From Candidatus Hermodarchaeum yapensis (lineage in GTDB: Archaea; Asgardarchaeota; Hermodarchaeia; Hermodarchaeales; Hermodarchaeaceae): a stretch of 27,715 nt of DNA. Location: the NCBI GenBank assembly GCA_016840405.1, contig JAEOSK010000035.1:1-27715 (forward strand), in the 5' to 3' direction. Both the position numbers and the translations under genes were made by a program. The notes beneath the pieces are model-generated. The model saw only the letters and a list, made by a program, of their open reading frames with translations. It made no database searches and was not told the origin of the DNA. Positions 5,583 to 22,662 of this stretch are shown here, piece by piece. Every line of letters starts with the position of its first letter. The first letter of the stretch is position 1.

Positions 5583-6139
5583 AAGGACTTCATCATGCTG
5601 GGAACTTGCATTTGCGTGTGCTGTGAGTAGTAATGATCAAGATTTCGTTTGTGTCGGAGTTGTTGAGCTTTGGCGGCGACGATGATGATGGTGAATATGA
5701 TTCCGAAGAGCAGGGCTGCAATCCAGTAGGGTGTATTAACGTCGGATGACACAAACCGTTTGAGTATGCTCCATTCGTAGACTGTGTCATAGACGTCATA
5801 CCCCTGTACACTAATGTTGGTCCAACCGAGTGGGTAGTTGTCGGTATGGAACGCCCAGGTGAACTGATGGTGAGTGGTGTTGTGGGCAAGGGTTTGGTTG
5901 ATATGTATGGTCACATGGGTCAGGTTGGCTGGACCGTTGACACTGAGTTGGAAATGCCCTTGGATATCGTTGCCAATGGAGTAACCAACGATTCGAATCA
6001 AGTGCACTTGGAGAGGGCGGGTGTCGTTGATGATAATTTGCTCTATATGGTTGTTGTCGGGCTTGAGAAGGAAACCCATCCCGCCGATGAGAATAACGAT
6101 GCTCAGAAGAGTAAGTACAAGCCGAGAGGTGAACTGCAT
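5579..6139 (-). CDS. Hypothetical membrane protein with two TM segments flanking a beta-rich extracellular domain
   Basis: Hydrophobic N-terminus and C-terminal TM; N-glycosylation sequons NDT, NLT, NQT, NTT, NIS. Confidence 0.7.
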   Translation of the reverse strand: MQFTSRLVLTLLSIVILIGGMGFLLKPDNNHIEQIIINDTRPLQVHLIRIVGYSIGNDIQGHFQLSVNGPANLTHVTIHINQTLAHNTTHHQFTWAFHTDNYPLGWTNISVQGYDVYDTVYEWSILKRFVSSDVNTPYWIAALLFGIIFTIIIVAAKAQQLRHKRNLDHYYSQHTQMQVPSMMKSF

Positions 6140-19806: not shown

Positions 19807-20550
19807 TTATGCTTCTGAATAGGGACATTCGGGTCTATTACATCGACTACAGATGAGTCGGTGTGATCGCCGAGACATAACTATCCGGGTAAAGATCCAA
19901 TAGAGAATTAACAAGAGTGAGTAGATCGCCAGAATAAGGCTATTTGTGAGTTGAGTCAGGCTAGTCAAGAGAAGGAATGATCCGACAACAAATAGACTAT
20001 TGATAATAAATCGGATGATTCCGCGATTTAGTTTTAGCAGTTGGTAGAGGGGATGCTGTAATAATCCAATGGTAACGAATATGAATCCAAGCCAGAACGT
20101 GGCTTCTGGATAGACGATTGGGAAGCTGAGGAAGAAAAACAAGATGGTTCCGATGATTGCAATTATTGCTCCCGTGACTAGTCCGTTACATCCTGCACAG
20201 TAATGTGAACCCTTGATAGTGATAACATGACCCGAATAATGATTACAGGTGGGGTGATGGCCTTCTTTTCGTATACTCTTGATCTGAGTTGAGTTGGTTT
20301 GCTCTACAATCTCTTTTTGACTCTGTTTTTTCTTTTTCCGTGTGAGTGAGCAGTGTGAAGGTGAAATTCCCGCAATAATTCCCAGAATGCAGATAATCAT
20401 GAAAGCGAATCCAATGAGTTGTGTTTGCCAAGGAAGCACGACGACCGGAGGGGGTGGATTGAGTAACATTAGTGATAAAAGAACAAGCCCTAGAAGTGAT
20501 AGAATTAGAGAAATCACTGAAAATTGAGAACTATGTCTTCGGTTCGTCAT
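19807..20550 (-). CDS. Cys/His-rich multi-pass membrane protein
   Basis: About 6 TM helices; SPSHC, GHHPTCNHYSGH, YCAGC and C-terminal CSRC...CP. ATGA overlap with the upstream radical SAM gene. Confidence 0.8.
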   Translation of the reverse strand: MTNRRHSSQFSVISLILSLLGLVLLSLMLLNPPPPVVVLPWQTQLIGFAFMIICILGIIAGISPSHCSLTRKKKKQSQKEIVEQTNSTQIKSIRKEGHHPTCNHYSGHVITIKGSHYCAGCNGLVTGAIIAIIGTILFFFLSFPIVYPEATFWLGFIFVTIGLLQHPLYQLLKLNRGIIRFIINSLFVVGSFLLLTSLTQLTNSLILAIYSLLLILYWIFTRIVMSRRSHRLICSRCNRPECPYSEA

Positions 20551-21965
20551 AATCGGAACAATCCTTTCAGGGTGCCTAGAAAACCCTTGAGCATCATATG
20601 TTGATAGTAGGCTCGCTTTACTTTATTGCGGGCAAAGATTCCGAAGATTCGCCGTCGCCACCCGTAATATGACCTGTAAGTTGCAAAGAGCTCGGTTTGA
20701 ACCTCCTCACGAGTCAGGTGCTCTGTGGGAATAATTGCGTTGACCATATCAAAACGTTTCCATCGTGGATCTTCAATCCAGCCGTTTTCCAAGGCTTTCT
20801 TGTACATGGGTTGACCCGGGTATGGTGTCATCGTCATAAACACGGCAATATCTGGGTCAACCTCTTTGATCCATTCACGAAATGCTTCGAGTGATTCATG
20901 AGAATCTTGTCGGTGACCAATGATGGCTGTTGTTTGGGCAAGGATTTCGTGTTCTTTTAGCAACTGAATCGCTTCCTTGCCCATTTCGATATCAATTCCT
21001 TTTCGATACTCCTTGAGCCGTTGGGGGTCGTGGCTTTCTAATCCGGTCATAATCCACTGTAACCCTGTCTCACGTAACTTTGGGAGAAGTTCCTTTCCAG
21101 AGATAATTTCATCCGCGCGGGTCTGAAAGAACCACATTAAATCTTCGGTGATTTCCCGCTCAAGTAACTCGTCACATAGGGTTTCCATCCAATCATCTAA
21201 TTGAACATAATCGTCGGTGAGCCATAGAAACCGACTACCAAACTCGTTGTATAAGTACTCAAACTCATCCGCAACACGTTGTGGCGATTTCTTTCTGCAC
21301 TTCCCCCAATACCGCCATTGACCACAAAACGAACACGAATGATTACACCCACGTCCTCCCTCAACCAAAGCATACGGCAAATCCTTTCCTGCAGGAAAAC
21401 AGTACTTCTTCATGTGATCCTTAACAAAATGATAGCCAGGAAACGGCAAGGTATCTAAATCCCGAATCAAGGCTCGATTAGCGTTGTGAGTGATTTTACC
21501 TCCCTGGCGAAAAGATAATCCTTTCACATTACTCAGGGTCGACCCCGATTTCAAGGCACGGACTAGTTCGACTAAGGTGACTTCTCCTTCTCCTCTTATT
21601 ATGAAATCTAGTTGGGGGAACGCTGCCAATGTGCCCTGCGCGAGCGCTGAGAAGTGCTGCCCTCCAGCCACTGTCCAAATCTCATCGTCGATTTGTTTGG
21701 CAAGAGTAGCAACCTGTATAGTGATGTTGGCATTGCATGTAGAAACTGTGCTCGGAGCAACTAAATCTGGTTGAAAGGTTTCAATACGTTTTGTCACATC
21801 TTCCCATTTTGCTTCTTCAGCTTGGCAATCCATCACCTGAATCTCAGCGTCTGGGTAATGTGCTTCAAGGTATCCCGCCAAACACAGAAGTCCTAACGGA
21901 GGGGGAATATACTCTCCCATAATAAACCAGGGATCCTTTGGTGGCTCAACAAAGAGAATTTTCAC
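20547..21965 (-). CDS. Cobalamin-binding radical SAM enzyme
   Basis: PPLGLLCLAGYL, GGQHFS, DFIIRGEGE, GRGCNHSCSFC (CxxxCxxC), GLES, TPYPG. GTG 21965 gives MKILFVEPP. Confidence 0.9.
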   Translation of the reverse strand: MKILFVEPPKDPWFIMGEYIPPPLGLLCLAGYLEAHYPDAEIQVMDCQAEEAKWEDVTKRIETFQPDLVAPSTVSTCNANITIQVATLAKQIDDEIWTVAGGQHFSALAQGTLAAFPQLDFIIRGEGEVTLVELVRALKSGSTLSNVKGLSFRQGGKITHNANRALIRDLDTLPFPGYHFVKDHMKKYCFPAGKDLPYALVEGGRGCNHSCSFCGQWRYWGKCRKKSPQRVADEFEYLYNEFGSRFLWLTDDYVQLDDWMETLCDELLEREITEDLMWFFQTRADEIISGKELLPKLRETGLQWIMTGLESHDPQRLKEYRKGIDIEMGKEAIQLLKEHEILAQTTAIIGHRQDSHESLEAFREWIKEVDPDIAVFMTMTPYPGQPMYKKALENGWIEDPRWKRFDMVNAIIPTEHLTREEVQTELFATYRSYYGWRRRIFGIFARNKVKRAYYQHMMLKGFLGTLKGLFRL

Positions 21966-22052
21966 AAATCCACATTCCAACGAAATGTGAATGCGCTATC
22001 TTCTGCTTGACGATTTAATCCTTATGTCTTTTCAGCATCGAACTATGAAAAG

Positions 22053-22188
22053 TGGAGGGGACCGGAGTTATGGTGATTCAGACACTTCCGAAAAAGGACA
22101 CAATTGGAGGGGAGAGGGAATGGTTTCTAGGGGAGAGGAAGTGCCTAAATATTCGCCACTCCGGCGGGGTTTGTTTTCCCGGGTCCCC
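22053..22188 (-). ncRNA. Candidate structured non-coding RNA or 5' leader (~136 nt)
   Basis: Terminal stem GGGGACC/GGUCCCC followed by UCCA; 14-bp helix AUUUAGGCACUUCC/GGAAGUGUCUGAAU; 47-nt pyrimidine-rich loop; upstream TTTTAATA (22219-22212); downstream U4. Confidence 0.55.
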
Positions 22189-22314
22189 ATGTAGACCCTT
22201 ACGAATTCACTTATTAAAACTTCTTATTGTCCAATTTCTTTCTTTGATGATTTTTGGGGTTTCCCCAAAGTCTTAAGAAGAGAAGGCACGCTACTGCTGG
22301 GTGAGGTGTTCCTC

Positions 22315-22662
22315 ATGGTGTATTGCCAGAAATGTGGATCAGAAAACGTTGACACAGCAGATTTCTGTAAGAAATGTGGAACTGCTCTCGCCCCGAGGAA
22401 AGATTTCGAAAAGCGTGCGAGCGCTTGGGGGCGTAGGGTCGGTGAACGTGCTGAAGAGGAATGTTTTGGTGTCACCGGAGGAGGAGCCATCTTTGGCATC
22501 ATTTTTGGTGTAATCATTATCGGGCTTGGATATTCTCTTGTCTTGGGAATACAATTGTGGATGTTGATTGGTCCCATTGTAGCACTTATCATTGGGATTC
22601 TCATTATCGTCTGTGCATTCAATTCAATTCGGAGGAAGCGTTCCCTAAGGGGACAGGAGTGA
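22315..22662 (+). CDS. Zinc-ribbon protein with ECFG motif and two TM helices (paralog of 19464..19793)
   Basis: MVYCQKCGSENVDTADFCKKCG, EEECFGVTGGGAIFGIIFG. GAGGTG RBS. Confidence 0.8.
   Translation: MVYCQKCGSENVDTADFCKKCGTALAPRKDFEKRASAWGRRVGERAEEECFGVTGGGAIFGIIFGVIIIGLGYSLVLGIQLWMLIGPIVALIIGILIIVCAFNSIRRKRSLRGQE

Follow-up and report, generated by a model that had tools for sequence, protein, structure and literature searches.

A bulge-helix-bulge RNA gene of a Hermod-type Asgard archaeon with an 82-nucleotide circle as its probable product

Results

An RNA gene between a radical SAM gene and a zinc-ribbon gene

The window analyzed here is a stretch of 27,715 nucleotides (contig JAEOSK010000035.1) from Candidatus Hermodarchaeum yapensis, in which a divergent intergenic spacer separates a B12-binding radical SAM gene on the minus strand (positions 20547..21980; Pfam PF02310 and PF04055) from a zinc-ribbon membrane protein gene on the plus strand (22306..22662; Pfam PF13240). 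An RNA gene lies on the minus strand of this spacer, with the zinc-ribbon gene as its upstream and the radical SAM gene as its downstream neighbor. The TATA-like element TTTTAATA at 22212..22219 (minus strand), which an earlier sequence-only reading of this DNA had picked out, is confirmed as the TATA box of the RNA gene; transcription is predicted to start near 22188-22190, and a T-run at 22051..22048 (minus strand), the likely terminator, closes the gene. A second promoter-like box, AAGGATTAAAT (22013..22023, minus strand), stands outside the RNA, between it and the radical SAM gene to which it is assigned, and is kept in most of the orthologs at this position (class A of the family described below). 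Such signals recur in the family as a whole, where 49 of 61 copies have a TATA-like box at a distance that is fixed within each class and 48 of the 61 are followed by a T-run. The trio of radical SAM gene, RNA gene, and zinc-ribbon gene has also held together, as a check on synteny suggested by the sequence-only reading shows, at 12/12 class A loci in the genus. Synteny thus links the RNA to the radical SAM gene, but a functional tie between them is unsupported by the evidence here.

All of the structural elements that had been described for this locus (stem, hairpin, 14-bp helix, and loop) are present on the minus strand. The 5′ flank ("exon 1", 22152..22188), in which pairing rather than sequence is kept between paralog classes, opens with the outer stem strand GGGGACC (22188-22182), which pairs with GGUCCCC (22063-22057), and also holds a small CGGG...CCCG hairpin (22181-22165), the 5′ strands of helices h and H, and the first two bases of bulge B1 (22153-22152). 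The hairpin is followed by the long arm, the base of which consists of helix h, where CCGGAGU (22164-22158) pairs with ACUCCGG (22068-22062), and the 4-bp helix H, where GGCG (22157-22154) faces CACC (22075-22072). Beyond a bulge AAU on the 5′ strand (B1, 22151..22153) lies an uninterrupted 14-bp helix h′ (22137..22150 with 22076..22089), identified from the fold and from compensatory changes, and this helix carries a C/U-rich loop of 47 nt (22090..22136), delimited from alignments. On the 3′ strand, a second bulge AUA (B2, 22069..22071) is followed by the 3′ flank ("exon 2", 22047..22068), in which ACUCCGG and GGUCCCC precede a tail UCCAC and then the T-run. The loop does contain two copies of UCUCCCCU (22136-22129 and 22115-22108), as had been noted, together with a CCUCC, GUGUCCUUUUU, and several UCCCC and CCUCUCC motifs.

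Folding calculations with RNAfold give the minus strand a minimum free energy of -43.5 kcal/mol (z = -2.77; one of 200 shuffled sequences folds as well), whereas the plus strand is unremarkable (z = -0.49), so that the proposed strand specificity is borne out by the comparison with shuffled sequences. The predicted minimum-energy structure reproduces the architecture of stem, hairpin, and long arm in a slightly shifted register. Moreover, two pairs in the 14-bp helix are G-U on the minus strand and would be C-A if read on the plus strand.

Searches for a known identity gave no candidate, in agreement with the sequence-only reading, which could not match the RNA to tRNA, 5S, SRP, RNase P, or a cobalamin riboswitch. 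Rfam yields no match at the gathering score in the whole window and three chance-level matches (E 2.6-9.7) in 21900-22400; no cobalamin or SAM riboswitch is matched at the gathering score or with E up to 10, and ARAGORN finds no tRNA gene at the locus. A tRNA or tRNA-like RNA was rejected on the grounds that there is no cloverleaf, the T arm is absent, the UCCA is variable in orthologs, and Rfam gives no tRNA match. The related suggestion of a tRNA mimic fails because the UCCA tail, the outer-stem sequence, and the side hairpin vary even among the 12 syntenic orthologs; the paralogs, in addition, have unrelated outer helices. Inspection likewise led us to reject a C/D box sRNA, since a CUGA is present at 22081-22078 but no UGAUGA occurs in the 82-nt segment 22070..22151 discussed below, and a K-turn in the internal loop, where there are no tandem G-A pairs beside a 3-nt bulge. 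These results support the presence of an uncatalogued, minus-strand-specific structured RNA with its own promoter.

A canonical bulge-helix-bulge motif maintained by compensatory changes

At its base the long arm forms a canonical hBHBh′ motif, with the 4-bp helix H between 3-nt bulges (AAU and AUA) on opposite strands, each bulge lying 3′ of its own H strand, an outer helix of 5-7 bp, and an inner helix of 14 bp. A 4-bp helix with two flanking 3-nt bulges is the defining substrate of the archaeal splicing endonuclease, and the central helix of pre-tRNA includes the first two bases of the anticodon (PMC4090602); each bulge must then follow its H strand on the 3′ side, an arrangement also seen here. 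In the window copy, CACC occurs at 22072-22075 where most copies, including that of the nearest relative (G002), have CGCC, and helix H of the window copy therefore contains one C-A mismatch.

Homologs were collected and tested for covariation, as the sequence-only reading had recommended, in an alignment of 58 copies from four paralog classes and two genera. Across this alignment 87% of cells are paired and double changes occur in 21 of the 25 pairs, giving a covariation score of 0.419 compared to 0.215 for shuffles (0/500 of which reach the observed value) and 0.04-0.13 for slid partners. Helix H is paired in 97% of cases and shows compensatory changes in three of its four pairs, the variants being GGCG/CGCC, AGCG/CGCU, GGCA/UGCC, and AACG/CGUU. 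The outer helix is 84% paired, with all seven pairs covarying, and the inner helix h′ is 86% paired, with compensatory changes in 11 of 14 pairs. Both bulges are 3 nt long, in gapless columns, in 58/58 aligned copies. Judged from these alignments, the predicted structure is far beyond chance and is maintained via compensatory changes in homologous copies.

A multi-copy family in Hermod-type genomes and beyond

The core of the RNA (22059-22167) recurs in its own genome and in all 18 other genomes of the GTDB family, with up to five copies per genome; no sister family within the order or class is present in the genome collection that was used. Where the invariant loop occurs in public records, these carry the label Candidatus Hermodarchaeota, which is an Asgard group. 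The five copies in the host genome are located at C21:22059-22167(-), which is the window copy, C41:35093-35205(+), C41:7064-7171(+), C44:5836-5951(+), and C54:12396-12510(+), and the neighbors of the family copies are mutually unrelated, comprising the radical SAM gene, an ADP-forming acyl-CoA synthetase, acyl-CoA dehydrogenase/H+-PPase, and GH5/DinB.

Conservation is concentrated in the segment 22070..22151 (minus strand). Every class A and class B copy, in either genus, has the same sequence over about 45 nt of the loop; the radical SAM protein encoded next to the RNA, by comparison, retains only 69-79% identity once the closest relative is set aside. This 82-nt segment is conserved in the 58 aligned copies while the outer flanks are free to vary; in class B, for example, one long helix takes the place of the outer stem and side hairpin. 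The equivalent segments are predicted to span 77-108 nt across the family.

Several copies depart from this pattern in ways that are informative in their own right. Seven class B copies (L052, L053, L054, L103, L104, L106, and L114) have a loop insertion of 16-22 nt, in which a new GGACA pairs with GUGUCC and a second GUCCUUUU is supplied, and in class D a C-run of the loop is paired in cis with a covarying G-run; these cis-paired motifs suggest that the loop motifs concerned act as pairing elements. A fifth and more divergent paralog, class E (genome G000, C54:12396-12510 (+); locus L139:897-1011), has GGCG-ACA...CGCU-AUA as its BHB bulges, the invariant C/U-rich loop, and a hairpin with a U7 terminator; it is kept in 13 of the 18 family genomes and has no Rfam match. 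An exact 20-mer of the loop is also found at L083:7497-7516, on a contig labelled uncultured Eubacteriales bacterium, where the family model gives no match, and this occurrence reflects a chance match or mis-binning of the contig.

A model trained on all classes detects divergent members with a canonical BHB in two other Asgard families, in three of four genomes of the first, from which three sequences were then added to the training set, and in three of three genomes of the second, which stayed outside the training set. One weak match was obtained in a fourth family, and no members were found in the remaining sampled families at the sensitivity of this model. The divergent homologs (L158:1501-1608 (-), L159:155-261 (-), L160:1501-1606 (-), L161:101-207 (-), L162:101-197 (+), and L163:101-207 (+)) have GGUG/CACC or GGCA/UGCC as helix H, TATA boxes, and loops of the CCCUCUCCCC type. 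On these sequence matches, the family is wider than the Hermod lineage.

A circular junction in environmental RNA libraries

A search of public runs retrieved six metatranscriptomes, each with 5-7% of the sequence words from a 1.4-kb region that includes the RNA, and we examined four of them (X1, X2, X4, and X6), which come from four studies of wetland, sediment, and marine sediment. In X1, X4, and X6 the RNA is represented by 112-nt contigs confined to 22070-22151 that go back by 82 nt on themselves (82 nt plus a 30-nt overlap). Their path runs from 22126 to 22070 and then from 22151 to 22097, forming a cyclic 82-nt unitig, and these closed contigs do not branch into the flanks. The join, ...CACCAU|UAUUUAGG..., connects 22070 to 22151 with zero positional ambiguity, which puts one cut at A22152|U22151 and the other at U22070|A22069, in either bulge behind the second base. 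Within 22070-22138 the contigs differ from the window at one base. In X2 a 112-nt contig of a different family member has the loose ends CCGCUAU|UGAUCAGU; the tool reported no joint for this contig, and we infer that its ends represent the same kind of junction.

Contig depths of 12.9, 66, and 137.6 in the three runs with cyclic contigs, and of 9.1 in the fourth, compare with 2-8 for contigs of flanking genes, each depth being a sum over sources because loop words are common to classes A and B and to related species. The RNA is among the better-covered transcripts of these sediment and wetland RNA data, which are assemblies of RNA libraries from which strand, ends, and true abundance cannot be read. 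The flanks 22152-22198 and 22011-22057 have no contig cover, a circumstance that is not usable as evidence against the presence of a precursor. No permuted or tandem arrangement of the circle exists among the approximately 90 genomic loci that we examined. In addition, the genome encodes RtcB and two EndA paralogs (on C14 and C36), the latter being consistent with a two-subunit enzyme.

Discussion

Biogenesis and alternative explanations

Our reading of these data is that the locus is a stand-alone RNA gene in which the functional product is an 82-nt circle, cut out by EndA and closed by a ligase, with the flanks serving only as a processing scaffold; we put the probability of this reading at roughly 0.8. 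Under this proposal, a primary transcript of about 140 nt would start near 22188 and end at the T-run (22051-22048), with the variable outer flanks holding the hBHBh′ motif in place. EndA would then cleave within both 3-nt bulges, two bases into each (A22152|U22151 and U22070|A22069), and a ligase, presumably RtcB, would close the excised piece into the 82-nt circle. The assignment of EndA and RtcB as the enzymes acting on this RNA is drawn from the motif and the gene content of the genome. The circle would have the shape of a dumbbell, with the 14-bp stem capped by 7 nt at one end and by the 47-nt loop at the other. The sequence-only reading had proposed a new three-way-junction RNA of about 136 nt, and of this proposal the uncatalogued structured RNA stands, whereas the junction is a BHB motif and the conserved product is the 82-nt circle.

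We consider it improbable that a linear three-way-junction sRNA of about 136 nt is the functional species, with circles as a minor side product or an intermediate of decay. As that explanation requires, the full-length fold is stable and the promoter and T-run do bound a unit of about 140 nt, but sequence conservation is limited to the circle while the flanks vary freely, contigs of four RNA runs cover the circle alone and close on themselves in three of them, and the BHB geometry is exact in 58 copies and present in other Asgard families. Even less probable, in our estimation, is that the circle is a discarded intron and that the ligated flanks form the product, namely a small RNA, tRNA-like or hairpin-shaped, that carries CCA and an acceptor-like stem. 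This idea would account for the 7-bp stem followed by UCCA in the window copy and for cuts at the canonical tRNA intron site (equivalent to positions 37/38). Among orthologs, however, neither the UCCA nor the flank sequences are conserved, class B is devoid of the side hairpin, there is no T-arm, the equivalent of U33 is G, and ARAGORN reports nothing.

Two further explanations concern the neighboring and overlapping reading frames. The RNA is on the same strand as the B12-radical SAM gene, some 70-130 nt upstream depending on the start codon, and it has kept this position at all 12 class A loci, so that a cis-acting leader, attenuator, or riboswitch of this gene might be envisaged, as the sequence-only reading had done for an attenuator. 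We regard this as very unlikely: the attenuator reading fails because the T-run and the AAGGATTAAAT box separate the RNA from the gene and because the paralogs, in classes B to E, adjoin unrelated genes (acyl-CoA synthetase, acyl-CoA dehydrogenase/H+-PPase, and GH5/DinB), and there is no cobalamin or SAM riboswitch match. To the idea of a protein-coding or repeat artefact, in which the sequence is a mobile repeat or encodes protein on the plus strand (ORFs 22052..22276 or 21991..22194), we give almost no credence. Both ORFs are open in the window and the sequence is multi-copy, but tblastn matches of the two ORFs are limited to the invariant nucleotides and occur in two frames at once, the frame is broken in orthologs, and the class B equivalent stops after three codons. 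Conservation of these ORFs as proteins, which had been named as an observation that would speak against an RNA gene, is therefore not seen. Moreover, a mobile repeat is at odds with the conserved syntenic sites, the covarying stems, and a lack of terminal repeats or transposase.

Possible functions of the circle

If the 82-nt circle is the product, one possibility for its action, which we hold tentatively, is a stable and abundant trans-acting RNA in which CCUCC, UCCCC, and CCUCUCC pair with purine-rich sequences resembling Shine-Dalgarno elements; the Shine-Dalgarno sequences of this genome are GGAGG/AGGTGA, and the loop CCUCC also occurs in the 3′ end of the 16S rRNA (GAUCACCUCCU). Anti-Shine-Dalgarno sRNAs are represented by RsaE/RoxS in Firmicutes and sRNA41 in Methanosarcina mazei, in which unpaired UCCC/CCUCC loop motifs have the potential to pair with ribosome-binding sites. 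These sRNAs are linear molecules with short conserved seeds, whereas the RNA described here has a 45-nt invariant loop and no sequence or structural homology to them. Invariance of the whole 45-nt loop exceeds the needs of a short seed and is no less compatible with a protein or RNP platform. That the circle is a platform, sponge, or scaffold for an RNA-binding protein is nonetheless a rather doubtful assignment, and some other function of the circle is a possibility that we entertain as seriously as base pairing with Shine-Dalgarno-like sequences.

Efforts to find a pairing partner by calculation have not singled one out. We rejected pre-16S rRNA as a partner because its complementarity is no better than that of shuffled loops; the best duplex with the pre-16S region has a predicted energy of -43.7 kcal/mol, a value equalled by 4 of 60 shuffled loops. 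A genome-wide duplex scan of the loop against 10,194 purine-rich windows likewise reveals no trans target that stands out, with the best sites outside the family loci at about -46 kcal/mol in a continuous distribution. Hence the anti-Shine-Dalgarno suggestion of the sequence-only reading holds in so far as the C/U-rich loop resembles such an element, but the genome-wide scan supplies no specific target. The top non-self match in the scan, C54:12440-12489(-), with a duplex energy of -48.9 kcal/mol and kept in 13 of 18 genomes, was considered as a GA-rich partner RNA and rejected, being the antisense of the fifth paralog. For this locus the C/U sense has the more stable consensus fold, with -36.8 kcal/mol compared to -20.9 kcal/mol for the GA sense, and we take the C/U strand to be the gene because the better fold, the family-model match, and the hairpin with the U7 terminator are all found there. 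Two sites, C42:15709 and C14:50418, match the complement of the loop exactly over 12 nt but have no telling context.

The rRNA loci of the host genome (G000) have some unusual features of their own. The 16S rRNA gene (C71:619-4212 (-), locus L132) is about 3.6 kb long compared to a model of 1478 positions, and it must therefore contain large insertions or introns, while the 23S rRNA gene is split across contig ends (C17 and C60). At C71 ~5690-5800 (-), about 1.5 kb upstream of the 16S gene, there is a hairpin with a purine-rich arm, GGGAAGAGGGAGGGGACC, facing a C/U-rich arm, CCCAUUCCCCCUCCCCUC, and the latter resembles the loop of the circle.

Relation to known circular RNAs

Cutting at BHB motifs and circularization are already known for archaeal tRNA introns, rRNA precursors, and one permuted SRP RNA. 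Archaeal tRNA introns are cut at the BHB by EndA and circularized, and the intron of tRNA-Trp carries a C/D box sRNA (PMC4090602, PMC12558985, PMC4536317). In common with these introns and with metazoan tricRNAs, the RNA described here has a 4-bp helix with two 3-nt bulges, a cut inside each bulge, and a potentially functional circle. The host of those introns is a tRNA, however, whereas here there is no cloverleaf and the flanks are variable, and unlike the tRNA-Trp intron sRNA the circle is without a C box. The SRP RNA of Thermoproteus is made from a permuted gene and circularized via BHB cleavage (Plagens et al. 2015, PMC4731332). It provides a closer parallel in that the gene is neither a tRNA nor an rRNA gene and a functional RNA is made by BHB cleavage and circularization, but the Thermoproteus circle restores a universal, known RNA, whereas the RNA here is lineage-restricted and its gene is unpermuted. 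Finally, circular pre-16S and pre-23S rRNA intermediates, and circular 23S rRNA in ribosomes, arise through EndA and RtcB at a BHB in the long processing stem and are seen in metatranscriptomes of uncultivated archaea, including Asgard archaea (PMC12918454, PMC7758197). These differ from the present RNA, which is 82 nt long, has no rRNA similarity, and belongs to a multi-copy family with its own promoters.

A promoter-driven, multi-copy gene with non-tRNA flanks that solely releases a small, conserved circle is absent from Rfam and from the searchable literature. The Hermod-type Asgard archaeon thus has at this locus a small RNA gene that had not been described and that seems to exist only to make a circle. 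Across a class-level lineage no genome lacks the family, which numbers up to five copies per genome and offers a concrete, testable case of a functional prokaryotic circular RNA as well as a natural design for stable expression of circular RNA. We suggest, as a speculation that may well prove wrong, that Asgard archaea have dedicated multi-copy genes with an abundant circular RNA, made by the tRNA-splicing machinery, as their sole conserved product and that the ring is a long-lived regulator, acting as an anti-Shine-Dalgarno mimic by titration of purine-rich ribosome-binding sites or as a protein sponge or scaffold. Asgard archaea are the closest archaeal relatives of eukaryotes. If true, such genes would be a prokaryotic counterpart of the functional circular RNAs of eukaryotes and a natural version of the BHB-based cassettes that have been engineered for circular RNA expression.
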